Of a DNA stretch of 64,000 nt, positions 11,831 to 61,168 are shown in pieces (position 1 is the stretch's first letter; every line of letters begins with the position of its first letter). The notes below the pieces were generated by a model. It was not told the origin of the DNA. It ran no database searches and saw only the letters and a program-made list of their open reading frames with translations. The translations under genes were made by a program, and so were the position numbers. The stretch is from an archaeon. Its GTDB lineage: Archaea; Nanobdellota; Nanobdellia; Woesearchaeales; GW2011-AR15. The stretch is taken from assembly GCA_043801855.1 (NCBI GenBank), contig JAZDLQ010000070.1:599-64598 (forward strand), read 5' to 3'.

Positions 11831-11884
11831 AGTATTTATACTAACATCACACTTAATAAAAACAAAATAAAATTAGGTGATTAA

Positions 11885-25206: not shown

Positions 25207-25689
25207 ATGAACATGAAAAAAGGACAAGCCGCAATGGAGTTCCTAATGACATACGGCTGGGCAATTCTAGTCGTAATCGCAGCAATTGCAGCTCTTGCTT
25301 ATTTTGGCGTATTAAGCCCAGATAAAATGCTGCCAGAAAGGACAACATTCCAGGCACCAGTACCAAGTGTTGATAATGCAGTTGTTAGGGCAAACGGAAC
25401 AGTAGTAATTGCATTTAAAAATAATGTAGGTTTTCCAATAACTATTGATGGGGTTACAGCATCAGGAAGTTGCACAACACCAACTTTTAGAGCAGTATAC
25501 AATAGCACCAGTTCACAGACAACAACTGGAATGACCATTTATAACGGAGATGGATTTCGAATTGAATTTACCTGCGGTGCACTTACTGCTGGGCAAAAGT
25601 TTAATTCAGATGTTGTTTTGACATATACAAACACTGAGTCTGATCTTCAGAAACCACATTCAGGTTCAATTAGTGCAAGAGTTGCTTAA
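25207..25689 (+). CDS. Archaeal type IV pilin (class III signal peptide)
   Basis: MNMKKGQ/AAMEFLMTYGWAILVVIAAIA is a prepilin-peptidase-type signal with a hydrophobic alpha-helix. GAGGTGA RBS. Confidence 0.8.
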   Translation: MNMKKGQAAMEFLMTYGWAILVVIAAIAALAYFGVLSPDKMLPERTTFQAPVPSVDNAVVRANGTVVIAFKNNVGFPITIDGVTASGSCTTPTFRAVYNSTSSQTTTGMTIYNGDGFRIEFTCGALTAGQKFNSDVVLTYTNTESDLQKPHSGSISARVA

Positions 25690-29249: not shown

Positions 29250-30437
29250 ATGTATAAATCCTTAGGAGATCTTGCAAGAATGCTTTTGCCGCTCTCAAGG
29301 CAAAAAGAGTATTCACTATTAAGAATTAAAGAGCTAAATAATGAAGAAAATTACAAAAAAGCAAAATTTCTGATTAAAACAGGAAAAGCAGATATAACTC
29401 TTGAGCGATTTAGCGTTTCTCCAAAAATAGCTGAAGAAACGCTTTATCCTTGCCTTAAGGTAAAAAGCAAGGATGATGAAGTTAAGCAATTTATTAAAGA
29501 CTTAAACACTGAACTTGAAAATTCAGTTAAAGAAAAAGCATTTGTTAGCTTTTCAAAGCATCCGGAAATCATTCTTGATTACATTGCTCCAAATATTTTT
29601 GGACTTGATTCAATTAAAGAGGCAGTTGCATTGCAGTTATTTTGCACTGAGCCTGTTCACATGCTTTTGCTTGGTGACCCTGGAACAGGTAAAACAGAGA
29701 TATTAAAGTCAGCTTCAGAGCTTCATCCGATTTCTTCTTTTGGCCTAGGTTCAGGCATTAGTGGCGCTGGCCTTGGAGTTACGGTTAGAGGAAATGAAAC
29801 AGTTCTTGGGCTCTTGCCAAGGGCAGATGGCGGTCTTTGTGCTATTGATGAACTCAATTTAATGAAAAGAGAAGAATATGCATACCTTTATTCTGCGATG
29901 GAAAAAGGATATATAACATATAATAAGGCAAATAAGAACTTAAATGTAAAAACAGATGTCAAAATTCTGGCAACAGCAAATCCTAAAGGAGATAAGTTTG
30001 TAGGATGGATGCTCGATACATTAAGGGATCAGATTCCTTTTGACTCTGCTCTTCTTTCAAGGTTCCATATTGTTTTTCTGATCAGAAAGCAAGGTGTTGA
30101 AGGATTTTTGCATATAACAAAAAAAATAGTATCCTGTAAAAAAGAGCCTGTAAATAATTCTGATATTATTTTTATAAAAAATTACATTGAGTCAGTTGAA
30201 GACATAAAGTCAGAGTTTCCTAAGGAATTTGAACCACATGTAGTTAATTTTATGAAATATATTAAGGAAAACGAAGACAAATTTTTAATTGAAGCAACAC
30301 CCAGGATAGTTGTCGGATTTGTCAGGCTTTGTAAAGCAAGGGCACGGATGTATAAAAGAGATAAGGCGAATCTTGAGGACGTCAAAAAAATAAAGGAAAT
30401 AATCGAGAAATCCCTCTTCATCAGGGAAAAAAGTTAA
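29250..30437 (+). CDS. Truncated MCM-like AAA+ ATPase (no N-terminal OB/Zn domain)
   Basis: LLLGDPGTGKT (Walker A), SGAGLGVTV, CAIDELNLM (Walker B), ILATANP (sensor 1), LLSRFHIVFLI (Arg finger) all follow the MCM pattern. Only 395 aa. Confidence 0.75.
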   Translation: MYKSLGDLARMLLPLSRQKEYSLLRIKELNNEENYKKAKFLIKTGKADITLERFSVSPKIAEETLYPCLKVKSKDDEVKQFIKDLNTELENSVKEKAFVSFSKHPEIILDYIAPNIFGLDSIKEAVALQLFCTEPVHMLLLGDPGTGKTEILKSASELHPISSFGLGSGISGAGLGVTVRGNETVLGLLPRADGGLCAIDELNLMKREEYAYLYSAMEKGYITYNKANKNLNVKTDVKILATANPKGDKFVGWMLDTLRDQIPFDSALLSRFHIVFLIRKQGVEGFLHITKKIVSCKKEPVNNSDIIFIKNYIESVEDIKSEFPKEFEPHVVNFMKYIKENEDKFLIEATPRIVVGFVRLCKARARMYKRDKANLEDVKKIKEIIEKSLFIREKS

Positions 30438-45711: not shown

Positions 45712-46248
45712 TTAACAAAATTTTCTTGCTTTAATAATTCCATAAGCAACGATACCGCCTAACACTGCTGTTGTTAATTGCATTAGTCCCATTGTTGTCA
45801 AAAAGGCAACTGGAATAATTTTTAAGGTGACTAAAATATATGCACATCCAAAAAGAAATGCTGTCTTTAATCCACTGCTTATTCCGAGGCTGACAAAATA
45901 ATTGCTTTTTAGTTTGCCTTTGAAATATTTCATAGCATAGACAATTATTGCGTTTCCAATCCAGATAAACGGAATCATATAAATTAGGTACACTGTAAAA
46001 GGACCAAAAATTAATCCTCTTGTAAGAACACCCACGCTTGGAAGAAGTATTACTGGTAATGTTCCTTTGGCATCCATATAGATTGCACATAGGATAAGCA
46101 CTGTATTGATTCCGACACCAACCAAAATCTGTGGATGTCCAATTAGCAGCGGAAGCAAAAATGCTAATAAACTATAAAAAAACAAATGAACCCTATATTC
46201 AAGGTTTTTTAATTTTTCTACCTGGATATTAATAAAATTGTTTTCCAT
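45712..46248 (-). CDS. Hypothetical polytopic membrane protein
   Basis: Five to six TM helices. Lies downstream of the hydrogenase genes. No motif recognised. Confidence 0.4.
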   Translation of the reverse strand: MENNFINIQVEKLKNLEYRVHLFFYSLLAFLLPLLIGHPQILVGVGINTVLILCAIYMDAKGTLPVILLPSVGVLTRGLIFGPFTVYLIYMIPFIWIGNAIIVYAMKYFKGKLKSNYFVSLGISSGLKTAFLFGCAYILVTLKIIPVAFLTTMGLMQLTTAVLGGIVAYGIIKARKFC

Positions 46249-46257: not shown

Positions 46258-46497
46258 CTAAATATACTCATTACTTCTGTCAACATACTTTGTATGCAGA
46301 AGTTCGTGCGCCTTTTGGCTACCATATTCGCCGACGTTCTCCTTATAGAAATTAATTACAGATTGGTTTAAGTGTGACTTTCTAATAGGAAGTGTTGTGT
46401 CGACTTTTACAACAGCTTCCATTCTCTTCATAAGTATCTCTTTTGTAGGAAAAGCCGGTTGTCCTCCTCCCCCTATACAACCGCCATAGCAGGCCAT
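46258..46497 (-). CDS. hydA: [FeFe]-hydrogenase HydA C-terminal piece (H-cluster L3 motif + small-subunit-like tail)
   Basis: MACYGGCIGGGGQP is H-cluster motif L3. Same frame as the upstream HydA ORF, separated from it only by TAG-GTA. Confidence 0.85.
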   Translation of the reverse strand: MACYGGCIGGGGQPAFPTKEILMKRMEAVVKVDTTLPIRKSHLNQSVINFYKENVGEYGSQKAHELLHTKYVDRSNEYI

Positions 46498-46500
46498 TAC

Positions 46501-47991
46501 CTAAATAAAGTGATAAGGTGATTTACCTGCTTTGATGTCATCCATTATCTTCCTTGCCTCAGAGAGAGTGTGAACTACACATATCTTGAGATCAATTCCT
46601 GCAACAGTTACAGTTGCTTCTTTTTTAGTCTCTAATCCCCTAACCTGTGTATATTCTATATTTTTTAGATCTTTGCCTTCAACCCAGTCAGCCGCAGTTC
46701 GCAGTGCTGCTTCCATGACGCCGCCGCTTCTTGCAAAAATTGCAGCGGCACCAGTTGATTCACCTAAAGGATTATCAAACATATCATCTTCAATCCGTGC
46801 AAAATCAATATTCATTTCCTTTATTAATTTTGCAAGTTCTACAGTTGTAAGGACAACATCAGTATCTCCCGTCATCTCAGATCTCTGGCATTCATATTTT
46901 TTTGCAGTGCATGGCATGACTGCAACCATTGTAATATCGTTTGGATCAATATTCTGCTTTGGCGCCCATACATGCTTTACAAGTGAAGAAAGCATTGACA
47001 TCGGACTCTTGCAGCTTGACAAGTGTGCAATTTGATCATAATAATATTGTTCCATGAATTTAATCCACCCAGGGCAGCAGGTTGTGATCATTGGCATTGA
47101 CCTATTCTCTTTTAGTCTGTGAATGAATTCATTTGCTTCTTCAACAATTGTGACATCTGCTGAAAAATCTGCGTCAAAAACATAATTGAAACCCATCATC
47201 CGAAGTGCCTTGACAATCTTTCCTGTGACTGGTGTTCCAGCTGGTAAGCCAAAGCATTCGCCAAGAGTTGCTCTTATTGATGGAGCAACCTGTGCAATCT
47301 TGATTTTTTTAGTATCATTCAAAACGTCTACTGCTGGCTGGATATCCGTATGCTCTGTTAAAGCGCCGGTAGGGCACACTACAACACACTGACCGCAGTT
47401 GATGCAACTTGACTCTTTCATGTTTGCGTGAAGTGGAGGTGCAATCCTTGTGTTAAATCCTCTTTTATGCAGACCGATTGCATGGACTGTCTGTACTTCT
47501 CCGCACATCTGAATGCATCTTTGGCATAGTACGCATTTATTATTGTCTCTTCTGATTGATATATTTGAATTGTCAGGTTCTTCAATTCTTCTCTCGCCGG
47601 AGTATTCATTTTCCTGTATCTGAAATTCAGCTGCATAAGTCTGCAGCTTGCAGTTTAGGTTTCTCTTGCATGTAGTGCAGTTAAGGTCGTGATTTGCTAA
47701 AAGAAGCTTTAGGTTTGTCCTTCTTGCATCTAAGACTTTTGGAGTATGTGTCAATACTTTCATACCATCCCTTACAGGAGTTACGCATGATGCGACTAAT
47801 CCGCCGCCTTTGGCTCCCTCAAGTTCAACAATGCAAAGCCTGCATGCACCGATTGCAGGTAGTCTTTCGTGATAGCATAAATGTGGTATTTTTATTTTGT
47901 TTCTTTTACATGCTTCAAGTAGGCTCTCTCCTGCTATTGCATCTATTACTTGATTGTTGACAATGATTTTTATTATTGGTTGTTCAGCCAT
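46501..47991 (-). CDS. hydA: [FeFe]-hydrogenase HydA, N-terminal 496 aa (ends at in-frame TAG)
   Basis: 2Fe-2S ferredoxin-like N-terminus and two CxxCxxCxxxCP clusters. H-cluster motifs L1 TTCCPGW and L2 MPCTAKKYE are present. It ends ...SPYHFI-TAG where clostridial HydA reads YHFIEVMAC. Confidence 0.9.
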   Translation of the reverse strand: MAEQPIIKIIVNNQVIDAIAGESLLEACKRNKIKIPHLCYHERLPAIGACRLCIVELEGAKGGGLVASCVTPVRDGMKVLTHTPKVLDARRTNLKLLLANHDLNCTTCKRNLNCKLQTYAAEFQIQENEYSGERRIEEPDNSNISIRRDNNKCVLCQRCIQMCGEVQTVHAIGLHKRGFNTRIAPPLHANMKESSCINCGQCVVVCPTGALTEHTDIQPAVDVLNDTKKIKIAQVAPSIRATLGECFGLPAGTPVTGKIVKALRMMGFNYVFDADFSADVTIVEEANEFIHRLKENRSMPMITTCCPGWIKFMEQYYYDQIAHLSSCKSPMSMLSSLVKHVWAPKQNIDPNDITMVAVMPCTAKKYECQRSEMTGDTDVVLTTVELAKLIKEMNIDFARIEDDMFDNPLGESTGAAAIFARSGGVMEAALRTAADWVEGKDLKNIEYTQVRGLETKKEATVTVAGIDLKICVVHTLSEARKIMDDIKAGKSPYHFI

Positions 47992-47992
47992 T

Positions 47993-49783
47993 TTAATTCC
48001 TCACTATAGCATCAAAAGCGCATACTTCATAGCATTTCCCGCATTTTACGCATTTTTTATGATCAATAACATATCTCTCTTTTAGTTTTCCTGTTATGGC
48101 ATTTACAGGGCAGTTTCTTGCACAGTTGCCGCACCCTTTGCATTTATCAGATATAAAATATTTTGTTAAGTTTTTGCATGATTTTGAAGGGCACTCTTTT
48201 CCAATAATATGTGCTTTATATTCCTCTTCAAAGTACAGTAGTGTTGATAAAACAGGATTAGCTGCAGTCTGTCCAAGTGCGCAAAGTGAATTGTCTTTCA
48301 CAAATGATGCAAGTTTTTTTAAAGTAGGAATTGTTGTCTCATCTGCAAGGCCATCTGTGACCTTTGTCAGGAGCTCAAGCATCCTTCTTGTACCTTCCCT
48401 GCAAGGAGTACATTTGCCGCAAGATTCTTCCTGAACAAATTGCATGAAGTACTTTGCTACATCAACCATGCAGTCCTTGTTACTCATTACAACCATTCCG
48501 CCTGAGCCCATGATTGCGCCAAGTGCATTTAGTGTTTCATAATCAACAGGTGTGTCTATTTTTTCTTTTGGAATGCAGCCTCCTGATGGTCCTCCTGACT
48601 GCACTGCTTTAAATTCGCTTCCGTCAGGGCATCCGCCGCCAATATCATAAATTATCTCTCTTAATGTAATTCCAAGAGGAACTTCCATTATGCCTGTTCT
48701 CTTAATATTTCCAGTAAGGCATATTGTGTGTGTTCCCTTAGTTCTCTCTGTTCCGACTTTTGCATAATTTTCAGCGCCAATTTTCATTATAGTTGAGACA
48801 TGGCAGAGTGTTCCTACATTATTTATTGCAGAAGGATATCCATACAATCCCTTGTCAGCAGGATACGGGGGCCTTGGCATTGGGTTTCCTCTGTCGCCTT
48901 CTGCTGATCTCATTAATGCAGTCTCCTCGCCACAAACAAATGCACCTGCGCCTGAGAAAACCTTGATATCAAAATTAAATCCGTCAACACCGAGAATATT
49001 TTCTCCGAGAAGACCGACTTTTCTTGCAATGTTTCTTGCTTCAGTTATAGTCTTTTTTGCAAGCGGTTTTTCTGCTCTAATATATATTAACCCGTTTTGA
49101 GCTCCTGTTGCGTATCCTGCAATGGTTAACCCTTCAATCAATCTAAATGGATCTGATTCCATTACTGTCCTGTTCATGAAAGCGCCGGGGTCTCCCTCGT
49201 CTGCATTGCATATGACATATTTTTTTCCGGGCTTGCTTGCAATAAAACTCCATTTCATACCTGTTGAAAAACCAGCGCCGCCTCTTCCTCTCAGGCCCGC
49301 TTTTTTCACATCTTCAACAACATCAAGCGGTTTTTTTGCCAAAGCATTTTTTAATCCGCAATATCCACCTCTTGCCATATACTGCTCCAGCTTTAGTGGT
49401 GATATTGTACCACAGTTTTCCATAAGCATCCTTTTTTGCTTTTTAAAAAAATCAATTTCTTCAAGAGTGTGTCCCATAAAAAGTTCTTTACATTCCTCGC
49501 CTTTTTTAATTGAGTCAATTAGAATTCCAACTTTATCGGTTGAGACATATCCGTAAATTGAGAAGATGCCTTTTTGCTTAACAGTTACAATTGGTTCAGC
49601 ATAGCACATGCCGGCGCATCCTACTCCTTCAACAAGCATTCCTAAACCTGCTTTTTGTAATTGTTCAAGGACAGGCACTGCTCCTGCAGCGACTCCGCAC
49701 GTTGCTATACCAACAGTGATTCTATCTCCTTCAAGCTCTTTACGCGCTTTATTAATATCAAATTTTTGTTCAAGTTCAAGCAT
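47993..49783 (-). CDS. hydB: HydB (NuoF-like NAD(P)H/FMN subunit of bifurcating hydrogenase)
   Basis: GLRGRGGAGFSTGMKW (FMN), NADEGDPGAFMNR, ESCGKCTPCREG, two C-terminal 4Fe-4S ferredoxin motifs. Confidence 0.9.
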   Translation of the reverse strand: MLELEQKFDINKARKELEGDRITVGIATCGVAAGAVPVLEQLQKAGLGMLVEGVGCAGMCYAEPIVTVKQKGIFSIYGYVSTDKVGILIDSIKKGEECKELFMGHTLEEIDFFKKQKRMLMENCGTISPLKLEQYMARGGYCGLKNALAKKPLDVVEDVKKAGLRGRGGAGFSTGMKWSFIASKPGKKYVICNADEGDPGAFMNRTVMESDPFRLIEGLTIAGYATGAQNGLIYIRAEKPLAKKTITEARNIARKVGLLGENILGVDGFNFDIKVFSGAGAFVCGEETALMRSAEGDRGNPMPRPPYPADKGLYGYPSAINNVGTLCHVSTIMKIGAENYAKVGTERTKGTHTICLTGNIKRTGIMEVPLGITLREIIYDIGGGCPDGSEFKAVQSGGPSGGCIPKEKIDTPVDYETLNALGAIMGSGGMVVMSNKDCMVDVAKYFMQFVQEESCGKCTPCREGTRRMLELLTKVTDGLADETTIPTLKKLASFVKDNSLCALGQTAANPVLSTLLYFEEEYKAHIIGKECPSKSCKNLTKYFISDKCKGCGNCARNCPVNAITGKLKERYVIDHKKCVKCGKCYEVCAFDAIVRN

Positions 49784-49784
49784 T

Positions 49785-50243
49785 TTAGTTCAGCCCTGCC
49801 AAGATTTTATCAATTTTTTGTTCAGTAAGGTCGCCATATACAACATCATTAATCATCATTGCAGGAGCTTTTGCACATGCACCAAGACAATTGACTCTTT
49901 GAAGTGAAAACATTGTATCGTTGGTAGTTTCTCCTGCCTTAATATTAATTTTTTTCTCAATATATTCCATCAGATTTTTAGAGCCTTTTACATGGCATGC
50001 GGTTCCTCTGCATACAGAAATCCTATATTTTCCTTCTGGGGATAGCTTGAAAAGGGCATAGAATGTTGCAACACCATAAAGTTTAGCAAGGGGTATATCA
50101 AGAGCCTTTGCAGCATCCTTTAAGTTCTCTTCAGAAAGATATCCGAATTCCTTTTGGATGTCTTGTAGTATTTCAACAGAATTTTTTGTGCTAATATGCT
50201 TTTTTACAATTTTTTCAAGCTTGTCGTCCATTCTAACCCTCAT
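49785..50243 (-). CDS. hydC: HydC (NuoE-like 2Fe-2S subunit)
   Basis: VCRGTACHVKGS ... CLGACAKAPAMMIN. Confidence 0.9.
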   Translation of the reverse strand: MRVRMDDKLEKIVKKHISTKNSVEILQDIQKEFGYLSEENLKDAAKALDIPLAKLYGVATFYALFKLSPEGKYRISVCRGTACHVKGSKNLMEYIEKKINIKAGETTNDTMFSLQRVNCLGACAKAPAMMINDVVYGDLTEQKIDKILAGLN

Positions 50244-50374
50244 GTTAACTATTAATTTTCAGAAGTATTCAACCATTAATAAAGCTTTTTGTCGTGTTAA
50301 GCATAGTTTGAGGGCAAACTTTTTAAGATTATGCCAAATCTTTTTATCTTAATTTATATAATTTTACTATTAAA

Positions 50375-51268
50375 ATGCATAATATAATTGAAGAGGAGAA
50401 GAATTATAGCTATACTGAGCTAATTTCACTGCTTTTGGAACTAAATGAGTCTGAATTTCTAAATGGCAAAGAGAATATTATTAATTATATTAAATTTAAT
50501 TCAGGTGAGCCAAATCTTGCAATAAGGCTTTCAAATATTAAGTATAAAGAAAATTTTCTTAAGCTTTTAAGAAAAAAAGAATTGTGTGAAATAAATAAAA
50601 ACGTCCAAGGTGAAAATAAAAATATTGTTACTGTTGGCTTAAACTTATATGCCTCGCATGTGAGACTAACACTTGACAAAGAAAAATGCATTCTTTGTGA
50701 TGTCTCACACACAATTTGTCCTAAAGAGGCAATTTCTGTAAAAGAGGACATAATTATAAATAATAAATGCATTTTTTGCGGTCTTTGCGTTCCGTTTTGC
50801 CCAACAGGTGCATTAAGTATTGCTAGAGATGATAAAAACACACCTGCTGTAATTGAAAACAAAAGCCTGCCTCTTCCATTTGATAGCGAATCTATTAATC
50901 ATATTGCAATTAAGCGCATTTTTGACGGTACAATTAGTGTTGACGCAGATAAATGCCCTGAAAAATGCGAGGAGTGCGTAGTTGCCTGTTCGACTGCCGC
51001 AATAAAGCTTGATAATAATAAAATAGTTGTAAATAGTAATGATTGTGTTTTGTGTGGCGCATGTAAAGTTGCTTGCCCAAAAAATGCGATAATAATAAAC
51101 AGAAACAGGCTTTTAGTTAAAGATAGCATTAGCTATTCAGCCTCTTTTAATGTTATTGTTGAAAAACTCTTGGGAAAAAACAAGCCAAATATAATGCATA
51201 ATGCAGAATCATTATACAAGATTACTACATTAATTAAAGACAGTGAGCTGAAAAAATATGCAGAATAG
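50375..51268 (+). CDS. Polyferredoxin-like 4Fe-4S protein
   Basis: Several CxxCxxCxxxCP-type motifs (CIFCGLCVPFCP, CVLCGACKVACP, plus variants). Overlaps the hdrA start. Confidence 0.7.
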   Translation: MHNIIEEEKNYSYTELISLLLELNESEFLNGKENIINYIKFNSGEPNLAIRLSNIKYKENFLKLLRKKELCEINKNVQGENKNIVTVGLNLYASHVRLTLDKEKCILCDVSHTICPKEAISVKEDIIINNKCIFCGLCVPFCPTGALSIARDDKNTPAVIENKSLPLPFDSESINHIAIKRIFDGTISVDADKCPEKCEECVVACSTAAIKLDNNKIVVNSNDCVLCGACKVACPKNAIIINRNRLLVKDSISYSASFNVIVEKLLGKNKPNIMHNAESLYKITTLIKDSELKKYAE

Positions 51269-53603
51269 TGATGAGCCAAGAATCGGTGTATTTGTCTGCA
51301 GCTGCGGCAAGAACATTGGCGGAGTAGTTGATGTAGCTAAAGTTACAGAATATGCTAAAACTCTTCCTAATGTATTTGTTTCCATGCTTAATATATATAC
51401 TTGTGCTGACCCAGGCCAAAACGAAATTAAAAGCGCAATAAAAGAACATAATTTAAACAGGGTTGTTGTAGCTGCGTGCTCTCCGAGAATGCATGAGCCG
51501 ACTTTTCGGAATTGTATTACTGAAGCAGGACTCAATCCATATTTGCTTGAAATGGCAAACATAAGAGAGCACTGCTCATGGGTCCATATTTGGGAAAAAG
51601 AAAAAGCAACAGAAAAGGCAAAAGAAATTGTTGCAATAGCTGTTGCAAAAGCAAGATACTTAAAGCCTCTTGAAAAATTTGTTGTCCCTGTAAAAAAATC
51701 ATGTATGGTAATTGGGGGCGGTGTTGCTGGTTGCCAGGCAGCCCTTGATCTTGCAAACCAAGGTTATAAAGTGTATTTGGTTGAAAAAGAGCCATCAATT
51801 GGCGGCAGAATGGCACAACTTGATAAGACATTTCCAACAATGGATTGTTCAATCTGTATTTTAGGTCCAAAACTTGTAGAAGTCGGGAGAAACAAAAACA
51901 TAACTTTATTGACAAATACAACTGTTGAAAAAGTCGATGGTTACATTGGAAATTTTAATGTAGAGACTATTACACTACCAAGGTACGTAATCGAAGATAG
52001 ATGCACTGGCTGCGGAGAATGTGCTGAGGCATGTCCTGTTATTATTCCAAGCAAATTTGAAGTTAACTTAAAGCCTCTAAAAGCAATACATGCACCTTTT
52101 CCTCAGGCAGTTCCTTTAAAATACAGGATAGATACTGATGCATGTATTAACTGTTACAAATGTGCAGAAGCATGTAAAGACAGAAAAGCAGTTGATTTTA
52201 CCCAAACAAAAGTAACAAGAAAATTTGATGTCGGAACAATAATTGTTGCAATAGGTGCTGAATCAATAAATCCAAAAATCAAACCAGAGTATGGTTATGG
52301 TAGATTTGAAAACGTAATTGATGGAATTGAGTTTGAAAGGATCATTTGTGCTGGCGGTCCGACTGGTGGAAATTTAGTTAGAAAAGATGGAAAGGACGCA
52401 AAATCATTTGGCTTTATCCAGTGTGTCGGTTCAAGGGATAAATCAATAGGCAAGGAATACTGTTCAAATGTGTGCTGTATGAACTCAATAAAAAACTCAA
52501 TGCTAATTAAAGAGCATAAGCCAGACGCTACTATTTACATATTTAATATGGATATTAGGGCCTTTGAGAAAGGTTTTGAAGAATTATATAATCGCGCAAG
52601 GGAAAACAGAGTAATTTTCATTAAAGGAAGACCTTCCCATATTTATGAAGGCAATGACAAGAACCCGGTTGTAGTAGTAGAAAATGTTCTTACGTCAGAA
52701 GTCATGGAAATAGAACTTGACATGGCAATTCTTGCGTCAGGCATGGTTCCTGACAGAACTGCTAAAGATATCGCAGAAAAGTTGCACATACCAAGAAACA
52801 ACGATGGCTTTTTTATGGAATCCCATCCAAAACTAAAACCGATTGATTCCCCAGGAGATGGAATATTTCTTTGCGGTTCTTGCGAATCACCTAAAGACAT
52901 TAAAAATAGCGTTACAAGTGCATCTGCTGCTGCATCAAGGGCAGCAATACCGATGTCAAAAGGAGCTGTTGAGATTGAAGGGATAACAATTCTTGTCGAT
53001 GAAAAAAAATGCATCGGCTGCGGCGCATGTGAACGTGCATGTCCTTATGGCGCAATGAAAATTGACAAATCCATAAAAAAAGTTATTCACAATGAAGCGC
53101 AGTGTCATGGCTGCGGCACATGCGTTGCAGAATGTAATTTCAATGCTTTGCAGCAAAAGCACTTTACTGATGAGCAGCTTTTAGCGCAAATTGATGTAGC
53201 GTTAAAAGACAACCCAAAAGAGAAGATTCTTTGTTTTGCATGTAATTGGTGCAGTTATGCAGGAAGCGATCTAGCAGGTGTTTCAAGATTTCAGTATCCT
53301 CCGGAAATAAGGATAATTAGGACAATGTGCTCAGGCAGAGTATCAGAAAAAATGATACTAAGAGCCTTTGAAAAAGGAGCGCAGATGGTTTGGGTTACAG
53401 GATGTCATTTGCCGACAGATTGCCATTATATATCCGGAAATCATTTTGCAAAGGCAAGAATTGAGCGATTGCAAAAAATACTCCCAAAAAAGTATAACAT
53501 TCCTTCAGATAGGTTAAAATTAAACTGGATTAGCGCTGCAGAAGGAAGCTTATTTGCAGGTTACGTAAAAAAGCTTGTTGAAGAGCTAAAGGAGATAAAA
53601 TGA
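51258..53603 (+). CDS. hdrA: Heterodisulfide reductase subunit A fused to an MvhD-like domain
   Basis: N-terminal Cys cluster VCSCGKNIG, FAD loop VIGGGVAGCQAALDLA, inserted ferredoxin motifs. The C-terminus ILCFACNWCSYAGSDLAG...IRTMCSGRV...WVTGCH is MvhD. Confidence 0.9.
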   Translation: MQNSDEPRIGVFVCSCGKNIGGVVDVAKVTEYAKTLPNVFVSMLNIYTCADPGQNEIKSAIKEHNLNRVVVAACSPRMHEPTFRNCITEAGLNPYLLEMANIREHCSWVHIWEKEKATEKAKEIVAIAVAKARYLKPLEKFVVPVKKSCMVIGGGVAGCQAALDLANQGYKVYLVEKEPSIGGRMAQLDKTFPTMDCSICILGPKLVEVGRNKNITLLTNTTVEKVDGYIGNFNVETITLPRYVIEDRCTGCGECAEACPVIIPSKFEVNLKPLKAIHAPFPQAVPLKYRIDTDACINCYKCAEACKDRKAVDFTQTKVTRKFDVGTIIVAIGAESINPKIKPEYGYGRFENVIDGIEFERIICAGGPTGGNLVRKDGKDAKSFGFIQCVGSRDKSIGKEYCSNVCCMNSIKNSMLIKEHKPDATIYIFNMDIRAFEKGFEELYNRARENRVIFIKGRPSHIYEGNDKNPVVVVENVLTSEVMEIELDMAILASGMVPDRTAKDIAEKLHIPRNNDGFFMESHPKLKPIDSPGDGIFLCGSCESPKDIKNSVTSASAAASRAAIPMSKGAVEIEGITILVDEKKCIGCGACERACPYGAMKIDKSIKKVIHNEAQCHGCGTCVAECNFNALQQKHFTDEQLLAQIDVALKDNPKEKILCFACNWCSYAGSDLAGVSRFQYPPEIRIIRTMCSGRVSEKMILRAFEKGAQMVWVTGCHLPTDCHYISGNHFAKARIERLQKILPKKYNIPSDRLKLNWISAAEGSLFAGYVKKLVEELKEIK

Positions 53604-54409
53604 AGCTTGGAATATCATATGTTATTGCAATTAAAAAAAGCGATTTTTTAATGGATAAAGAGCTAGGCATGTACTATTTATCTGGTCTTGAAAAATTAAT
53701 GATTATTAAAAAAAAATATGAACTGGATTGCGCAGAAATACTAATTGAGCCGCCGATTAACTCAAAATTTCTTAGTGATAATAAAGATACAATTAAAAAA
53801 ATTTTAGAGGATAATGTAATTACCTGTCACTTACCAATGTCTGAAGTTAATATGTCTGCAATGGATAAAAGCATCAGGGCATATTCTATTCAGGAGCTAA
53901 AAGACCTGATTGTTTTTTGTGAAAGTGTAAATATTAATACAGTTGTTCTTCATCCTGGGCAGTTTAATGATGTGCATGTTTTACTTAAGGATTATTTTTT
54001 TAAATATTTTAAAGAAACAGCGCTGGATTTGGTATCTTTTTCAAAGAAGCATAAAATAAAACTTTGTTTTGAAAACCTACCTAAAGGCAATAATTTTTTT
54101 ACAAAGATTGAAGATATGAAAATTCTTGCTGACCTTGGAGCCAATATTTGTTTTGATACAGGTCATGCAATTACAAATAATATTGACCCTTGCGAATTTA
54201 TTAAAAAAATTAAGATAAGCCACATCCATATGCAATCAAACAGGCTTGGTGATTTTGACAGGCATTTGCCGCTTGGCTCAGGAGATTTGGATTACAGGCA
54301 GGTGATACGCTTATTAAAAGAAATAAACTATGATAATTACATTATATTTGAGATGTTCAATGAAAAAGACCTGGTTCAGTCTCTGGAGGCGTTTAGAGAT
54401 GCCAATTGA
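53600..54409 (+). CDS. Xylose-isomerase-like TIM-barrel protein (sugar phosphate isomerase/epimerase or AP-endonuclease-2 fold)
   Basis: VVLHPG...CFENL...FDTGHA...HMQSN...IFEM is the pattern of metal ligands typical of this fold. ATGA-coupled to hdrA and overlapped by the hdrC start. Confidence 0.6.
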   Translation: MKLGISYVIAIKKSDFLMDKELGMYYLSGLEKLMIIKKKYELDCAEILIEPPINSKFLSDNKDTIKKILEDNVITCHLPMSEVNMSAMDKSIRAYSIQELKDLIVFCESVNINTVVLHPGQFNDVHVLLKDYFFKYFKETALDLVSFSKKHKIKLCFENLPKGNNFFTKIEDMKILADLGANICFDTGHAITNNIDPCEFIKKIKISHIHMQSNRLGDFDRHLPLGSGDLDYRQVIRLLKEINYDNYIIFEMFNEKDLVQSLEAFRDAN

Positions 54410-54824
54410 CTTTGAATTAAGAAATGAATTAATTAAAGAGATTCCGGATATTTTACGCTGTTTTCAGTGCGGAACATGCGTTAGCAGCTGCCCAAGCGAG
54501 AAATACGGCAAGAACTACACTCCAAGAAGAAAAATCCTATCAGCAACTTATGGCGATAAAGCTCTTTTAAGTGAAGAATTATTCAGGTGCTTGACATGCC
54601 ATTCATGCAACGAGAGATGCCCTCAGGAAGTCAATCCTTATGATGTACTGGTAAAACTGAAAAATTTTACGATAAAAAAAGGGTTTGCAAAGGAGAGCGA
54701 ATCAATTGAGCAGATATATTCAACAGGAAGCAGTATGCAATTTTCAGAAAGGGCAAAAGAGCAAAGGAAAGCACTTGGCCTTCTAGAACTTAAAAAAATT
54801 GAAGGTTTAAATGATTTAAAATGA
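54399..54824 (+). CDS. hdrC: Heterodisulfide reductase subunit C
   Basis: CFQCGTCVSSCP and CLTCHSCNERCP. ATG 54399 lies 8 nt after GGAGG. Confidence 0.8.
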   Translation: MPIDFELRNELIKEIPDILRCFQCGTCVSSCPSEKYGKNYTPRRKILSATYGDKALLSEELFRCLTCHSCNERCPQEVNPYDVLVKLKNFTIKKGFAKESESIEQIYSTGSSMQFSERAKEQRKALGLLELKKIEGLNDLK

Positions 54825-55681
54825 GATATGCTTTTTTCCCAGGATGTGTTGTTCCAAGCCAGATGCCATATTTAGAGAAATTATCAAGGGATGTTTTTGC
54901 AAAACTAGGGATTGAATTATCTGACCTTGATTTTTCTTGCTGCCCATATTCTGCAGTTAGAGACAAAAGTGAAACAGAATGGTTAACTCTTGCTGCAAGA
55001 AACCTTGCAATTGCGCAGGAAAATAAACTTGACATATTGACAATATGCAGCGGATGCGCCCAGACACTCAGTGAAGCAAACCACATACTTAAAAGCGATA
55101 AATCAAAATTAGTTATGGTCAATGAGAAGCTTAAAAAAATTGGCAAATCATATGATAGTTCAGTTAACATATATCATTTCATGCAATTGTTCGATAATGA
55201 AAAAAGTATTGTCTCAGAAAAAGTGATTAAAAAATTTACCGGATTAAAAGTTGCGACCCATACTGGCTGCCATATACTACGGCCTTCAAAAGTTATGGAA
55301 TATGATATTCCTGAAAATCCGACAAAATTTGATGAATTGGTTGAGCTTCTTGGAGCAACTCCAATATTTTATAGATCAAAAACATTATGCTGTGGCTATA
55401 CTCAGGTTACAAACCAAAAAGAGATGGCGACAGATATAATGAAGGAAAAGCTTGTTGAAGTCCACGATAAAGCAGATATGCTATGCGTTTGCTGCCCAAG
55501 CTGTTTGACCCAATACGATAAAAACCAGGTGCTTGCAAAAGCAAAATACAAACTTGACTATAAGGTTCCTGTAATTCACATCCTGCAATTGATAGGCCTG
55601 TCGATAGGGATGAATGAAGAAGAAGTTTTCCTAAAAGAAAACAGGTCATTGAATGAAGATATTAAGTTAAAATTAAAATGA
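54821..55681 (+). CDS. hdrB: Heterodisulfide reductase subunit B (two CCG domains)
   Basis: FFPGC...CCPY...CSGC and HTGC...CCGY...CCPSC. Confidence 0.85.
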   Translation: MRYAFFPGCVVPSQMPYLEKLSRDVFAKLGIELSDLDFSCCPYSAVRDKSETEWLTLAARNLAIAQENKLDILTICSGCAQTLSEANHILKSDKSKLVMVNEKLKKIGKSYDSSVNIYHFMQLFDNEKSIVSEKVIKKFTGLKVATHTGCHILRPSKVMEYDIPENPTKFDELVELLGATPIFYRSKTLCCGYTQVTNQKEMATDIMKEKLVEVHDKADMLCVCCPSCLTQYDKNQVLAKAKYKLDYKVPVIHILQLIGLSIGMNEEEVFLKENRSLNEDIKLKLK

Positions 55682-55950
55682 AAATAAACACTGTTTTTTT
55701 GGTGCCATTCGCTAAATTTGGAATAGGAGATAGTTTTGAAATTATGAATGACACAAAATTTATTGATTTGGTCATTTTAATCTCTAAAAAACACGGAAAT
55801 GAATTTGAAAAAATGCTCATTAGTGGTGTTAATAATGAGATACACATCAAAGATAATGTGATGATTTTGCATAAAGGAAAGACAGTTAAGTTAAGTGATA
55901 AATTAAGTGAAGGCGAATATGTCTTTTGTGCTGTTATTGCAGGGGGATAA
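55678..55950 (+). CDS. MoaD/ThiS-like beta-grasp protein ending in Gly-Gly
   Basis: 90 aa ending ...CAVIAGG-stop. ATGA-coupled to hdrB and directly upstream of aor. Confidence 0.55.
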   Translation: MKINTVFLVPFAKFGIGDSFEIMNDTKFIDLVILISKKHGNEFEKMLISGVNNEIHIKDNVMILHKGKTVKLSDKLSEGEYVFCAVIAGG

Positions 55951-55952
55951 AA

Positions 55953-57794
55953 ATGTTAGGGTATACTGGTAAATACATTGATGTAAATCTTTCAACAAAA
56001 AAGTGCGTTGTACTTGATTTGCCAGAGGATTGGCCGCAGAAATACATTGGCGGCATCGGATTTGGCATAAAGGTTGCCTGGGATAATATTCCAAAAGGAG
56101 TCGATGCTTTTTCTCCTGAAAATGTAATTTCTTTTTGGACGGGCCCATTTGCAGGGACATTAGTTCCGGTTTCTTCAAAATATACTGCTGTTGCAAAGTC
56201 TCCTCTGACAGGAACTATCGGTTTTGGTATAAGTTCTGGCGGATTTGGTGCTGAGCTAAAACGCGCCGGGTATGACGGCATTGTGATTCGCGGCAAAGCA
56301 GATTCCCTTTCATATTTATTTATCGATGATGACGCAATCATAATTAAGGATGCCTCGTTTTTGCAAGGAAAGACCACATGGAAATCAGAGGACATGATAA
56401 AGGAATGCCTTGGCGATTTATCTATAAGAGTTGCGGCAATCGGTTCTGCAGGTGAAAAACTTGTACGCTATGCCTGCATTACAAATGACAAAAATAGACA
56501 TATTGGAAGAAATGGATTAGGCGCAGTTATGGGCAGTAAAAATCTAAAAGCAATTGCGCTTAGAGGAACAAAGGATGTTAAAGTAAATGATTTAAAAACT
56601 TTGCTTGCAGAAGTCAAGCAGCTATACAAAGATTGCAGAGGCGAAAAAATGTATTATGGCAGGGAAGGAACACCAATTAAGATACTTGTCCATAATAAGC
56701 GGGCAGTTCTTGCCACAAATAATTCTCAGAAAATGACTTTTGATGGAGCAGATAAAGTTTCAGGAGAGCGCATGCTTAAAGAAAAAGTTAGAAAGATAAT
56801 TGCATGCGAGATGTGCGCTGTTGCCTGCGATCATGTTAATGTGATAAAAGAAGGTGAGTATAAAGGAGCAGTCGGAAGTATTGACTTTGAGACACTTTGG
56901 GCACTTGGCCCATTTTGCGGAGTTGACAATCTTGATGCGATAACTAAAGCTACGCAATACTGTGATTCTCTTGGCATGGATACAATATCAACCGGAGTTA
57001 CAATTGCATGGGCAATGGAATGCTATGAAAAAGGAATATTTACTAAAAAAGACACAGATGGACTTGAATTGAATTTCGGCAATCATGCTGCAATGGTTGA
57101 GCTTGTAAGAAGGCTTGGCAACCGTGAAGGTAATTTTGCCAAAATGCTTGGTGAAGGAAGTAAATATGCAGCAGAAAAAACAGGAAATAATACAATTAAA
57201 TTTGCAATGCAGATTAAAGGCTTAGAAACTAGTGCTTATCCTTTTAGACCGATGCAGACAGGTGCTTTAGGCCACGCAACATGCATAACAGGCGCCTTCT
57301 ACCAGCGTTCAGGAAGCTACCAATATGATGAAAAAGATGCAGTTGACAGGTTTTCACTTGACAAATCAAGGGGAAAGCTTGTAGCTGATGGAGAAGACGA
57401 TTATACTGTAATAGATTCTTTAATAATCTGCAAGTTTTCAAGGAGGATATATACAAACAAAGAAAAACTGGCGCAGATCTTGGGTATAGTGACAGGTGTA
57501 AAACTCACTTATGATGACCTTCTTTTCGCCGGAAAGAGAATTTATACGCTAGGGAAGTGCTTTAATATAAGACATGGTTTTGCAAGAAGCGACGATTATC
57601 TTCCAAAAAGGGCTTATGATGAAGTAATTAATGATGAAATTAACAAAGATGCGAGAGTTAAATTAAATGAGTGGGAAGATGCCCTTGACAGCTACTATGA
57701 ATATAGGGAATGGGACACAAAAACAAGCATTCCAAAAAAAGAAACCCTAAAAAAGCTTGGTCTGGATGATGCAGCAGATGAGGTTGGTGTGTAA
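55953..57794 (+). CDS. aor: Aldehyde:ferredoxin oxidoreductase family (tungstopterin) enzyme
   Basis: MLGYTGKYIDVNLS...YIGGIGFG N-terminus, CEMCAVAC cluster cysteines, and AOR-family length. ATG follows an AGGGGG RBS. Confidence 0.9.
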   Translation: MLGYTGKYIDVNLSTKKCVVLDLPEDWPQKYIGGIGFGIKVAWDNIPKGVDAFSPENVISFWTGPFAGTLVPVSSKYTAVAKSPLTGTIGFGISSGGFGAELKRAGYDGIVIRGKADSLSYLFIDDDAIIIKDASFLQGKTTWKSEDMIKECLGDLSIRVAAIGSAGEKLVRYACITNDKNRHIGRNGLGAVMGSKNLKAIALRGTKDVKVNDLKTLLAEVKQLYKDCRGEKMYYGREGTPIKILVHNKRAVLATNNSQKMTFDGADKVSGERMLKEKVRKIIACEMCAVACDHVNVIKEGEYKGAVGSIDFETLWALGPFCGVDNLDAITKATQYCDSLGMDTISTGVTIAWAMECYEKGIFTKKDTDGLELNFGNHAAMVELVRRLGNREGNFAKMLGEGSKYAAEKTGNNTIKFAMQIKGLETSAYPFRPMQTGALGHATCITGAFYQRSGSYQYDEKDAVDRFSLDKSRGKLVADGEDDYTVIDSLIICKFSRRIYTNKEKLAQILGIVTGVKLTYDDLLFAGKRIYTLGKCFNIRHGFARSDDYLPKRAYDEVINDEINKDARVKLNEWEDALDSYYEYREWDTKTSIPKKETLKKLGLDDAADEVGV

Positions 57795-57795
57795 G

Positions 57796-58281
57796 ATGTC
57801 TCATAAGATAATCGTCTGCAACACTGAAAAATGCACTGGTTGTAGGATTTGTGAGTATATTTGTTCTTCTGTTAATGAAGGAGTGATAAATCCACGAACT
57901 TCAAGAATAAAGACTATTAGGATAGACCCTGTTTTTGATCTAGCATTGTCTTGTAGGAAGTGCGAAAAGCCAAAATGTATCAATTCTTGTGCAAGAAATG
58001 CTATTTCACAAGATGAAACAACAAGGCAGATAGTTATTTCAAAGGAAAAATGCGATGGTTGCGGCTATTGCATCAAAGATTGTCCATATGGTGTTCTCAC
58101 TTTAGGGATAGATAAGAAAATTGCATCAGTTTGTGATTCTTGTACTGAAAAAAACGTAGGAATTCCTGCGTGCGTTGATTATTGCCCAACAGGTGCTATA
58201 AAATATCTTTCTATTGATGAAATTGAAGAAAAAGCTGTTAAGGACTTCCATTCAACACTACAGGAAAAATCAAAGGAATAA
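57796..58281 (+). CDS. 4Fe-4S dicluster electron-transfer protein (DmsB/AorA-like)
   Basis: CTGCRICEYIC, CRKCEKPKCINSC, CDGCGYCIKDCP, CDSC...CVDYCP. Confidence 0.8.
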   Translation: MSHKIIVCNTEKCTGCRICEYICSSVNEGVINPRTSRIKTIRIDPVFDLALSCRKCEKPKCINSCARNAISQDETTRQIVISKEKCDGCGYCIKDCPYGVLTLGIDKKIASVCDSCTEKNVGIPACVDYCPTGAIKYLSIDEIEEKAVKDFHSTLQEKSKE

Positions 58282-58647: not shown

Positions 58648-59379
58648 CTAAGCTAAGTTGTACAATGTCTTTATTTTTTCCTTGTTTTTTACAGCAAAAA
58701 TTTTAATGCCGTTTGGCTGCCTGAATTCTTCAATTAGATCTTTTTTGACCTTCAGATTATTCATGTAAACCCTTATTGAATTTACTGATTTTTTAGTCCT
58801 TCTTGCAATTTCTGTATATGTAAGGGGGGTACTTTGATTAAAAAGGAAGTTAAGAAGCTCTTTTTCAGGGAAAGTGAGTTCATTGTCTTCTGCTTTTATT
58901 GGTTCAGCAGGCAATTTTTGGGATTTTTCTATAGATCTTATCTTGTTTTCAACTTCAAATAGCACTTCTTCTTTTATTTTTCCATACTTCGCCTGGCTTT
59001 CAATAATTCCACTAATGTGAAGAAGAAGATCATTGTGATATTTTTTCATCTCTTCTTTCATAGAAGTGCGAAGATCTGTTTTTAGGTTGCTCTCTAAGGA
59101 TTTTACATCTTTTTCAAGCTGCTTTTGGCTTTTATATAAGTAATTTACCCACTCAGACATGCTTTTAAGAGTAGTCTTTAGCTCTTCTCTGTGATGGAAA
59201 TGGGTCTGATTCAAGGAATTTGAGGAATGGTGAAGCTGTTTTATGTTCTCATGCAGGTAGTTTATCCACATGCGATGGTAATCCATGTGCTTATTGAATT
59301 CAGTGAAAGTGTTGTTAAAAACAGATGTCTTTACCTTGGTTTCTTTGCTAGAATTAAAAAGTCTCTCTAAAACCCCCAT
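58648..59379 (-). CDS. Coiled-coil protein with C-terminal winged-helix DNA-binding domain
   Basis: C-terminus LTYTEIARRTKKSVNSIRVYMNNLKVKKDLIEEF. The N-terminal part is His-rich and coiled-coil. Confidence 0.5.
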   Translation of the reverse strand: MGVLERLFNSSKETKVKTSVFNNTFTEFNKHMDYHRMWINYLHENIKQLHHSSNSLNQTHFHHREELKTTLKSMSEWVNYLYKSQKQLEKDVKSLESNLKTDLRTSMKEEMKKYHNDLLLHISGIIESQAKYGKIKEEVLFEVENKIRSIEKSQKLPAEPIKAEDNELTFPEKELLNFLFNQSTPLTYTEIARRTKKSVNSIRVYMNNLKVKKDLIEEFRQPNGIKIFAVKNKEKIKTLYNLA

Positions 59380-59457: not shown

Positions 59458-59739
59458 TTAATCTCTCGTTATATTATAATTTTTTACAATATACGCCGAG
59501 ATTTTGGCATTATAAGATTTAAGAACATTAAGAACAACATCAAGATGCTTTTTTTGAATTATAATTGCTGACCTGATGGGTTTTTCATAATTGGTATTGG
59601 ACAAAACACCTTTAGTTATCGACGTATATTTTCCATTATGGGTCTTTTCTGTAGTTCCAAATAATTTTCTATCAAACTGCTTTCTTTTAACAGGACTTAA
59701 CCTATCAAAAGAATAGCAAATCAGTATTTGCTCTTTCAT
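59458..59739 (-). CDS. Small conserved hypothetical protein (paralogue of 60911..61168)
   Basis: 93 aa. Shares F.RKLF....(S/T)H.GKY....G.LS...YEKP.RS.(I/V)I blocks with the 85-aa ORF on the other side of the IS. Confidence 0.45.
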   Translation of the reverse strand: MKEQILICYSFDRLSPVKRKQFDRKLFGTTEKTHNGKYTSITKGVLSNTNYEKPIRSAIIIQKKHLDVVLNVLKSYNAKISAYIVKNYNITRD

Positions 59740-59749
59740 ATCTTTTTAG

Positions 59750-60909
59750 TAAAATAGAAAAGTTTAAATACTTTTCTGTCTTTTAAAAGACACAATGATA
59801 AAATATTTCCCTTTAGAAGTTCTGATATTATATGAAGAACAAAAGATATTTGATGAGACCTCTCCAAACAAAAAGAAAATAGAACCAAAAGAAAAAAGAC
59901 ATAAGAAAAAAATCAGATATCCACGGGATGAGTCTGCATATAATGCTTCTCAAGAAAATGAGTTTTTATTCTTTTTATCCGCATTGCCATTTGTAGTATT
60001 TTATTCCGTAACAAAAGCAGGTATCAAATTAAAAACATCTGAATTTAACAAATGCTTTGTATATTATATGTGTCTCTCAATAAAAGATTATTTTGGGATG
60101 AGTCTCCGCCGCTCAATTAGTCTTATCAAATTCATATTCTGGGCAATGAAATGGAAATACAAGGTGCCTTGTTTTAAGACGCTAAATAATTACGCGATGA
60201 AACAAGAAACATCGCATATCCAAAGAGTAATGCTTGAATATTCTGCAAGCCCTTTAAAACATATTGAAACACATTTCAATATAGACTCAACAGAAGAGTC
60301 ATTAATTACAGCATCAACATGGTTCAATTGGAGAATTAGAAGAAGCATAAAGAAAAAAGATCATCTCAAAGAACATGTAACATCTACTGCAAAATATAAT
60401 GTTGCAGTTGCTGTTGGCATTTCACCTGCAGGAGATGCAAAATTTATCAGACCGCATGTCAAAAAAATTATTGACCAAGGTTTTTCAATTAAACATGTGG
60501 CAGGTGACAAAGGGTATTTATCAAGAGACGGATGTAATGCAGTAAAAGAAGCAGGAGGACAAGCTAATTTTAAAATTAAATATAATACTGTTTCAAATGC
60601 AAAAAGTAGCCAAGAATGGAAAAGAATGGTAACTGCGCAAAAAGAGGAGAACATTGATGAAATTAATAATTACAATGTTCGGCAGAATGCAGAGTCAACC
60701 AACTCTGCTAAAAAGAAAAAATTTGGCTCTTGCATTAAATCTAAACTTGATATTACTAAGGAAACTGAAGCAATGGGAAAATGGTGTGTTTATAACTTAA
60801 CAGCGATATGCAGAGCATACTATGATAATGCTGCAGATGTAATGTATATTTCTAAGAATTTGCACATTGAAAGATTATTAGCTTACACATAGCCGGTTTT
60901 TCTATTTTA
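59750..60909 (+). mobile_element. Insertion sequence (IS4/IS5 superfamily), about 1.16 kb with 12-bp terminal inverted repeats
   Basis: TAAAATAGAAAA at 59750..59761 and its exact reverse complement TTTTCTATTTTA at 60898..60909 bracket the single transposase ORF. Confidence 0.55.
59795..60892 (+). CDS. DDE transposase (IS4/IS5-type)
   Basis: Candidate catalytic residues in NIDST, AGDKGY and YNVRQNAESTNSAKK, i.e. the Y-(2)-R-(3)-E-(6)-K signature. Confidence 0.75.
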   Translation: MIKYFPLEVLILYEEQKIFDETSPNKKKIEPKEKRHKKKIRYPRDESAYNASQENEFLFFLSALPFVVFYSVTKAGIKLKTSEFNKCFVYYMCLSIKDYFGMSLRRSISLIKFIFWAMKWKYKVPCFKTLNNYAMKQETSHIQRVMLEYSASPLKHIETHFNIDSTEESLITASTWFNWRIRRSIKKKDHLKEHVTSTAKYNVAVAVGISPAGDAKFIRPHVKKIIDQGFSIKHVAGDKGYLSRDGCNAVKEAGGQANFKIKYNTVSNAKSSQEWKRMVTAQKEENIDEINNYNVRQNAESTNSAKKKKFGSCIKSKLDITKETEAMGKWCVYNLTAICRAYYDNAADVMYISKNLHIERLLAYT

Positions 60910-60910
60910 T

Positions 60911-61168
60911 ATGGCCAAAATAATGATGATTTATTCTATTCCAGATGGAAAGGATGCTATCAGAATAACATTCAACAGAAAGCTTTTCAACTATAATCTA
61001 CAATCGCATGAAGGAAAATACAAAAAAAAATCTCAAGGCATTCTATCAAAATATGAAAAACCGTTACGCTCTGTTGTTATTTTTGATAAAGATAAATTGG
61101 CTGCGGTTGAGGTTCTTTGCTCTCAGCTGTCTATTGACGCTAAATTTTATCTAATTAAAGAGATTTGA
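60911..61168 (+). CDS. Small conserved hypothetical protein (paralogue of 59458..59739)
   Basis: 85 aa. See the paralogue entry. Confidence 0.45.
   Translation: MAKIMMIYSIPDGKDAIRITFNRKLFNYNLQSHEGKYKKKSQGILSKYEKPLRSVVIFDKDKLAAVEVLCSQLSIDAKFYLIKEI

Follow-up and report, generated by a model that had tools for sequence, protein, structure and literature searches.

Most [FeFe] hydrogenases of Woesearchaeota are trimeric group A3 enzymes whose genes stand together with nuoF-like and nuoE-like genes. Their P1–P3 cysteines are conserved, and they form a clade with the enzymes of other DPANN archaea (Huang et al. 2021, PMC8421398). Among archaeal [FeFe] hydrogenases, group A3 is the most widespread (44 of 130 genomes) and ranges over at least six DPANN phyla as well as Thermoplasmatota and Lokiarchaeia; an archaeal HydABC complex has been modelled, too (Greening et al. 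2024, PMC11216029). Here, we describe the hydCBA operon on a 64,000-nucleotide stretch of contig JAZDLQ010000070.1 (positions 599 to 64,598, assembly GCA_043801855.1), which we call the window. It resembles the published DPANN A3 HydABC systems (PMC8421398, PMC11216029) in gene order, domain architecture, P1–P3 motifs, and host lineage, and in having no maturase genes nearby, but it differs by an in-frame TAG at the Glu codon of P3. Class, host lineage, and missing maturases are already published, and the window adds one species-level member with a damaged hydA gene. An original prediction for this DNA had spoken of an under-described archaeal lineage of the enzyme, which is outdated in view of both publications.

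The catalytic subunit HydA has P1 (TSCCPxW) as TTCCPGW at residues 303–309 and P2 (MPCxxKxxE) as MPCTAKKYE at residues 359–367. P1 supplies one Cys ligand of the H-cluster and the proton-relay Cys. P3 (ExMACxxGCxxGGGQP), however, is not on one unbroken polypeptide with P1 and P2, as its Glu codon is TAG (46501-46503). The remainder of the motif, MACYGGCIGGGGQP at residue 499, is encoded in a separate open reading frame (ORF) of 79 amino acids (aa). Across the break, the sequence reads ...TCACCTTATCACTTTATT TAG GTA ATG GCC TGC..., with the translation SPYHFI*VMAC and then YGGC. The TAG divides hydA, four residues ahead of the first P3 cysteine, into a 496-aa and a 79-aa ORF, and the Pfam domain Fe_hyd_lg_C is truncated in the 5' ORF (residues 231–496, profile positions 3–232 of 245). 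The prediction had listed all three H-cluster motifs for HydA. All three are present, but the third one lies in the separate ORF behind the TAG, and the string YHFIEVMAC quoted there is that of the Clostridium pasteurianum enzyme CpI; the window reads YHFI*VMAC.

In the alignment column of the TAG, all 19 relatives have Glu. The closest relative, which belongs to a sister genome introduced below, has GAG at the homologous codon. Hence, a single G>T change separates the two. We searched a protein database of 5.8 billion clusters, and the window HydA is the sole truncated protein among the best 120 matches, the others having 554–619 aa. Its product is the only member of its own cluster, and no intact or near-identical version was found in this search. 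Contig scans for a second copy of the species, covering genomes and metagenomes, gave only relatives with at most 59% identity, many of them bacterial and picked up via short peptide patterns. As assembled, the window encodes no intact HydA, and the catalytic gene is broken inside an H-cluster-binding motif. The 496-aa product lacks two of the four H-cluster cysteine ligands and should be inactive. This is a caution for annotation: with all motifs present and the right neighbors in place, the assembled gene still cannot give an intact catalytic subunit. Before this bin is scored as H2-evolving in a metabolic reconstruction, the reads should be checked.

The genes hydC, hydB, and hydA are co-oriented on the minus strand and fill 46258..50243 (Table 1). 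From each stop codon to the next start codon, there is 1 nt, and thus the three genes form one operon. The order hydC-hydB-hydA recurs in all DPANN loci that we inspected (five related archaeal loci). Coordinates and Pfam domains agree with the prediction that the NuoF-like HydB and the NuoE-like HydC lie directly upstream of hydA in the same orientation. The spacer in front of hydC probably carries the promoter; the sister locus (L001) has a comparable divergent spacer of 144 bp between the corresponding called genes.

HydC has its [2Fe-2S] site (Cx4Cx35Cx3C) at Cys 78/83/119/123, and its best solved match is HydC of Thermoanaerobacter kivui (8a6t_C, E 4.9e-43). HydB is composed of the Pfam domains Complex1_51K, SLBB, NADH_4Fe-4S, and Fer4 (542–592). 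Conserved cysteines are found in its N-terminal extension (29/56/60), in an N3-type cluster (455/458/461/501), in a CPxKxC pair (531/536), and in two C-terminal [4Fe-4S] motifs of the form CxxCxxCxxxC (548/551/554/558 and 578/581/584/588). Residues 21–593 align to the bifurcating BfuB/HydB structures 9n5u_B, 7t2r_B, 7q4v_B, 7p5h_B, and 8a6t_B, and the E values of HydB against solved bifurcating complexes are 7.4e-186 and 1.5e-172. By its sequence, HydB has the flavin mononucleotide (FMN)/NADH module and extra iron-sulfur domains that correspond to the clusters B2–B5. Non-bifurcating homologs are without these HydB clusters (Schut et al. 2022, PMC9304861). Hence, the B2–B5-type domains kept in HydB point to a bifurcating architecture.

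The best solved matches of HydA are HydA1 of Acetobacterium woodii (E 7.6e-172) and the T. kivui "electron bifurcating hydrogenase subunit HydA1" (E 1.3e-168). All three window subunits align over their full length with HydABC of A. woodii (7q4v/8a5e), T. kivui (8a6t), and Thermotoga maritima (7p5h). The window HydA (577 codons) and T. kivui HydA1 (571 aa) have their C-terminal ends at the same point; T. maritima HydA (645 aa) is aligned only to residue 551 and has an extra C-terminal domain which the window HydA lacks. Unlike these complexes, the window operon is archaeal. Only when the TAG is replaced by Glu does HydA score 779.5 against the NCBIfam model NF040763 ("NADH-dependent [FeFe] hydrogenase, group A6"), above its cut-off of 765. 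The predicted family, a trimeric bifurcating-type HydABC, and the archaeal host are correct.

The function of the intact enzyme is derived by homology from the mechanism proposed for T. maritima (Furlan et al. 2022, PMC9499530). Electrons from NADH would enter at the FMN of HydB, and electrons from reduced ferredoxin would enter at the extra iron-sulfur clusters of HydB. They would run through the cluster chain of HydA to the H-cluster, where H2 would be released. Confurcation of this kind, with H2 formation driven by NADH together with reduced ferredoxin, would take place during fermentation and be reversible. Bifurcating or confurcating activity of the intact enzyme is thus a prediction from homology.

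Among the alternatives, the strongest is that the repaired enzyme is non-bifurcating and uses NADH only, like Hyd1ABC of Syntrophomonas wolfei. The same three subunit families are involved, and HydA also has NuoF-like and NuoE-like partners in S. wolfei Hyd1ABC and Syntrophus aciditrophicus HydAB (Losey et al. 2020, PMC7311640). The NCBIfam model that HydA passes is named simply "NADH-dependent," and we found no biochemically characterized archaeal A3 enzyme in the papers that we consulted (PMC11216029 models one structurally). However, HydB of S. wolfei and S. aciditrophicus is without B2–B5 (Schut et al. 2022), whereas the window HydB has the corresponding domains. Its C-terminal ferredoxin domain with two clusters, its CPxKxC pair, and its N-terminal extension with cysteines are all retained, and the structures to which this HydB aligns are those of experimentally bifurcating enzymes. 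We therefore consider an NADH-only enzyme unlikely and prefer the bifurcating type.

Both architectures occur side by side in a related archaeal locus. Contig L141 (9346..12580, Logan SRR2544004_109866), whose HydA is 70% identical to that of the window, has two tandem hydCBA sets. In the second set, HydB is short (368 aa) and limited to Complex1_51K and NADH_4Fe-4S, an architecture ascribed to non-bifurcating NADH-only enzymes; this set adjoins a full bifurcating-type set.

Archaeal genes in the window comprise Orc1/Cdc6, the small and large subunits of PolD, MCM, and TBP, and also NrdD/NrdG. Family matches confirm the archaeal surroundings that had been named from Orc1, PolD, MCM, and TBP; no NCBIfam model matched 25207..25689, which had been called an archaeal pilin. 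The best named matches of the PolD large subunit are from Candidatus Woesearchaeota (61–68%), and the nearest HydA relatives (58–74% identical) carry the annotations Woesearchaeota, Nanoarchaeota, or Altiarchaeota. We assign the host to the Woesearchaeota-type DPANN archaea. The best match of PolD (P0122, 72% identical) and the best match of HydA (P0002, 74% identical) most likely belong to one genome, the sister, as the longest contig carrying each of them is 163,802 bp long. As the closest HydA relative is only 74% identical, the window appears to represent a species not otherwise sampled.

The sister genome was assembled independently from three other samples, and its HydA is intact. The window and the sister contig L001 (L002 and L003 come from other samples) have a common gene order over more than 20 kb on both flanks of the operon. 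On one side, AOR, a small ORF, HdrB, HdrC, HdrA/MvhD, and polyferredoxin are divergent from HydC-HydB-HydA. Beyond HydA, the common order continues with diphthamide synthase, ThiF, NUDIX, DUF1858, NifU, NifS, Maf, HD, NrdG, and NrdD. Divergence from the sister is about equal for HydA and PolD, as given by the identities above. The fit of synonymous codons is typical for the window (z = -0.46 for hydA, +0.71 for hydB, and -0.89 for hydC), and the z-scores of the hyd genes for guanine-cytosine (GC) content at third codon positions are +1.8, +0.7, and +0.5. The hyd operon is native and not chimeric. Lateral acquisition had been one of two origins offered in the original prediction; a recent transfer is excluded, and synteny and divergence make the operon native. 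A chimeric contig, which would have overturned that prediction, is excluded by the synteny with the sister and by the normal synonymous codon use.

Apart from the TAG, neither a frameshift nor another stop is found in hydA. Identity to the sister is 69% in the 3' part and 75% in the 5' part, and all HydA motifs as well as the proton-pathway stretch VEEANEFIHR are intact. Hence, the stop is either recent or artefactual. In-frame stops elsewhere in hydA are found in 4 of 143 other loci (L033, L063, L070, and L129), which is about 3%. These are bacterial (Ignavibacteria-type) hydA genes with stops at query positions 201, 139, 367, and 211, respectively, in the tblastn alignment. On L003, a contig of the sister population with a HydA identical to P0002, hydB (7880..9675) is called as two ORFs of 277 and 333 aa. 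Thus, sporadic interruptions are normal in such assemblies. Most likely, the TAG either arose very recently as an inactivating mutation, which may be a population variant, or is an error in the assembly consensus. If the stop is real, fermentative H2 production would have been lost recently in a DPANN archaeon with intact hydB, hydC, and adjacent hdr/aor genes. Overall, we are largely confident that the locus is a native group A3 (Bfu-type) hydCBA operon of a Woesearchaeota-type DPANN archaeon, in which the TAG is a recent mutation or a consensus error and is not recoded.

Several points weigh against this reading. Among the 4-kb tetranucleotide windows of the contig, the hyd segment deviates most (z = 4.3, correlation 0.887 compared with a mean of 0.970), and its GC content is 0.40 compared with about 0.33 in the surroundings. 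Tetranucleotide consistency had been proposed as a check, and it flags the segment, but we attribute the deviation to amino acid composition, i.e., to the GC-rich codons of an enzyme that is conserved and rich in Gly, Ala, and Cys while its genome is AT-rich, and not to foreign origin. The sister genome has about 50% GC, compared with about 33% in the window, and the hyd genes are no outliers there. Tetranucleotide correlation between the hyd segments of window and sister is only 0.21. In view of this value, the codon fit, and the composition of the sister, each hyd copy took on the composition of its own genome.

The second point concerns the rate of change in HydA. We tested for decay of HydA by leave-one-out and Tajima relative-rate tests, and HydA has 44 lineage-specific changes in the window and 19 in the sister (p = 0.0016). 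No significant asymmetry was found for PolD (45 in the window, 61 in the sister), HydB (45 and 32), and HydC (5 and 6). The excess in HydA hints at some relaxation or adaptation that preceded the stop. The extra changes are conservative (I/V, F/Y, and L/M), and the strong AT drift of the window genome may contribute to the excess. A long-standing pseudogene was rejected because the acceleration, which is confined to HydA, is modest and conservative, unlike free decay, with AT drift as a possible confounder.

Further points are that bifurcation is not provable from sequence and that a real mutation and an assembly error look alike in the assembled sequence. Finally, none of the maturation genes hydE, hydF, and hydG is in the window, as had been stated at the outset. 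The only radical-SAM (CxxxCxxC) protein of relevant size in the window is the NrdG activase (TIGR02495, score 205.7, cut-off 131), and there is no HydF-like GTPase in the window. A full HydEFG set is found in only 5 of 130 archaeal genomes with [FeFe] hydrogenase (Greening et al. 2024, PMC11216029).

Between the genomic backgrounds of the window and L001, the tetranucleotide correlation is only 0.14. This is a large compositional shift between related Woesearchaeota, and the GC content shifted although the proteins are 66–85% identical and the gene order is kept over more than 20 kb.

B12-binding radical SAM genes (PF02310 and PF04055) adjoin hydCBA in two distant DPANN lineages, a Woesearchaeota-like contig and an Altiarchaeota metagenome-assembled genome (L141, 3504..5006; L144, 9746..11110 and 11176..12558). 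They are accompanied by Glycos_transf_2 and PMT_2 genes. They are not HydE or HydG, and the window has no such gene. The adjacency may be a coincidence, or it may bear on an archaeal route of H-cluster maturation.

The next alternative is a functional split enzyme. Here, the TAG would be real, translation would terminate and reinitiate 3 nt further on at the ATG of VMAC, and the 496-aa and 79-aa parts of HydA would assemble. In such an enzyme, the H-cluster would be built across a subunit interface, including the cysteine that bridges to the di-iron subcluster. To our knowledge, this is the case for no [FeFe] hydrogenase. Reinitiation is mechanically conceivable, as the TAG-GTA-ATG spacing resembles the stop-N-ATG junctions of hydC/hydB and hydB/hydA. 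The 79-aa ORF is intact and conserved and aligns to residues 494–571 of T. kivui HydA1 and residues 497–573 of CpI. Natural two-subunit [FeFe] hydrogenases also exist, e.g., the periplasmic Desulfovibrio enzyme (1hfe, 1e08), whose separate small polypeptide is homologous to the C-terminal segment of monomeric enzymes. However, the Desulfovibrio small subunits (1hfe_S, 1e08_D) match only residues 18–76 of the 79-aa ORF, and P3 is part of the large subunits, whose matches extend to query residue 515-517. Hence, the natural split is after P3, whereas the window break is before P3. All H-cluster ligands are on the large subunit in Desulfovibrio, whereas the window break leaves both P3 cysteines on the small fragment. 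A large/small subunit split of the Desulfovibrio type was rejected for this position of the break.

A break at the TAG position is not found in any of 119 relatives or 143 other hydA loci; it is confined to one contig. There is just one Shine-Dalgarno-like match, AGGT, with its end 1 nt ahead of the ATG; the matches of other window genes are 2–14 nt away. The split would also lose the conserved Glu and the next Val, and a Met beside the H-cluster, a placement which we assume from the CpI numbering, would become a free N-terminus. For these reasons, we regard a functional split as very improbable. There is likewise only a slim chance that the TAG is genuine and fixed in a working four-polypeptide complex in which the 79-aa piece donates both P3 cysteines.

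The tetranucleotide deviation and the higher GC content of the hyd segment would fit a bacterial origin, through either a faulty join to an archaeal contig or a very recent transfer. Against this stand the common gene order on both flanks in the independently assembled sister, the matching divergence of HydA and PolD, the typical synonymous codon use, and the inconspicuous composition of the hyd genes in the sister. In addition, the identity of HydA to its best bacterial matches is only about 47%, compared with 58–74% for DPANN archaea. Chimera and recent transfer were rejected on synteny, codon use, and matched divergence, and we give bacterial origin next to no weight compared with a native operon.

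It is equally hard to credit that full-length HydA arises by decoding of the TAG, whether as pyrrolysine, via a suppressor tRNA, or through programmed read-through: the reading frame continues past the stop and its 79 codons there are conserved, but stop usage, extensions, tRNA scan, and RNA folding all gave no support, and recoding was rejected. TAG is the normal stop of 10 other well-formed genes in the window, with in-frame extensions of 0–26 codons and one exception. In this exception, the 91 codons past 59795..60892 belong to a small gene of their own, which starts with Met and shares the frame by chance; it is paralogous to 59458..59739 (33% identical, E 1e-13). ARAGORN found no tRNA of any kind in the 64-kb window, and the 117 nt that begin with the TAG showed no more stable folding than shuffled sequence did (z = -0.30). 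Glu is encoded in every relative and TAG in none, and no other gene in the window is interrupted by an in-frame TAG. We know of no report of pyrrolysine in DPANN archaea. The lack of tRNA genes itself may be coincidental, given a small genome, or the scan may have overlooked archaeal tRNAs with introns.

Table 1 Features of the hydCBA operon and of the divergent polyferredoxin-hdr cluster in the window
Feature	Position	Strand	Description and evidence
hydC	49785..50243	-	NuoE-like thioredoxin-type [2Fe-2S] subunit, 152 aa; Pfam 2Fe-2S_thioredx PF01257, E 4e-52
hydB	47993..49783	-	NuoF-like FMN/NADH subunit with N-terminal extension and C-terminal 2x[4Fe-4S] domain, 596 aa
Whole hydA	46258..47991	-	577 codons; Fer2_4, NADH-G_4Fe-4S_3, Fer4, Fe_hyd_lg_C (Pfam)
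hydA 5' ORF	46501..47991	-	496 aa; N-terminal [2Fe-2S] and [4Fe-4S] domains, H-domain with P1 and P2; ends at in-frame TAG
In-frame TAG	46501-46503	-	Conserved Glu codon of motif P3 (ExMACxGGCxxGGGQP); read directly from the sequence
hydA 3' ORF	46258..46497	-	79 aa, in frame with 5' ORF; P3 (MACYGGCIGGGGQP) and small-subunit-like C-terminal segment; Pfam Fe_hyd_SSU E 1.8e-19
Intergenic region between hydC and divergent polyferredoxin-hdr cluster	50244..50374	.	131 bp, AT-rich, presumed promoter region
Polyferredoxin	50375..51268	+	
HdrA2-type HdrA fused to MvhD	51258..53603	+	NF040770 score 1070, just under the cut-off of 1100
Xylose-isomerase-like TIM-barrel gene	53600..54409	+	Weak best match CbiR cobamide-remodelling phosphodiesterase, 84.7 (cut-off 105)
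HdrC-like	about 54399..54821	+	
HdrB-like	54821..55681	+	
90-aa ORF	Between HdrB-like and aldehyde:ferredoxin oxidoreductase genes	+	
Aldehyde:ferredoxin oxidoreductase (AOR)	55953..57794	+	
Fer4 protein	57766..58281	+	

Directly downstream of hydA, 9 nt past its stop codon, there is an ORF for a multi-pass membrane protein of 178 aa (45712..46248, minus strand), which may be co-transcribed. It matched neither Pfam nor NCBIfam, and the sister contig has a gene with a tRNA_bind domain at this site instead.

The cluster divergent from hydCBA spans 50375..58281 on the plus strand, and the same cluster is found in the sister contig. Adjacency of hyd and hdr/aor genes is common only to the closest relative and is absent in four more distant DPANN loci. 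In the sister, hdrA and hdrC are adjacent without the TIM-barrel gene between them. Thus, the TIM-barrel gene looks like an insertion into the hdr operon. Window and sister are 85% identical in HdrA/MvhD and 81% in AOR, which is above the 72% of PolD; HdrB (47%) and polyferredoxin (40%) are far below it.

Further along, the ORF 59795..60892 (365 aa) has no family match but, on visual inspection, resembles a DDE-type transposase. Two paralogous small ORFs of about 85–93 aa lie on either side of it, at 59458..59739 (minus strand) and about 60911..61168 (plus strand), and the region 59458..61168 possibly represents a mobile element. Of all window genes, the neighboring 58648..59379 on the minus strand deviates most in synonymous codon use (z = -2.85). 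Besides the full-length MCM (14621..16642), the window has a truncated MCM-like paralog at 29250..30437 (plus strand); its 395 aa match only the AAA+ core of MCM (model positions 261–591) with a score of 126 compared with a cut-off of 940.

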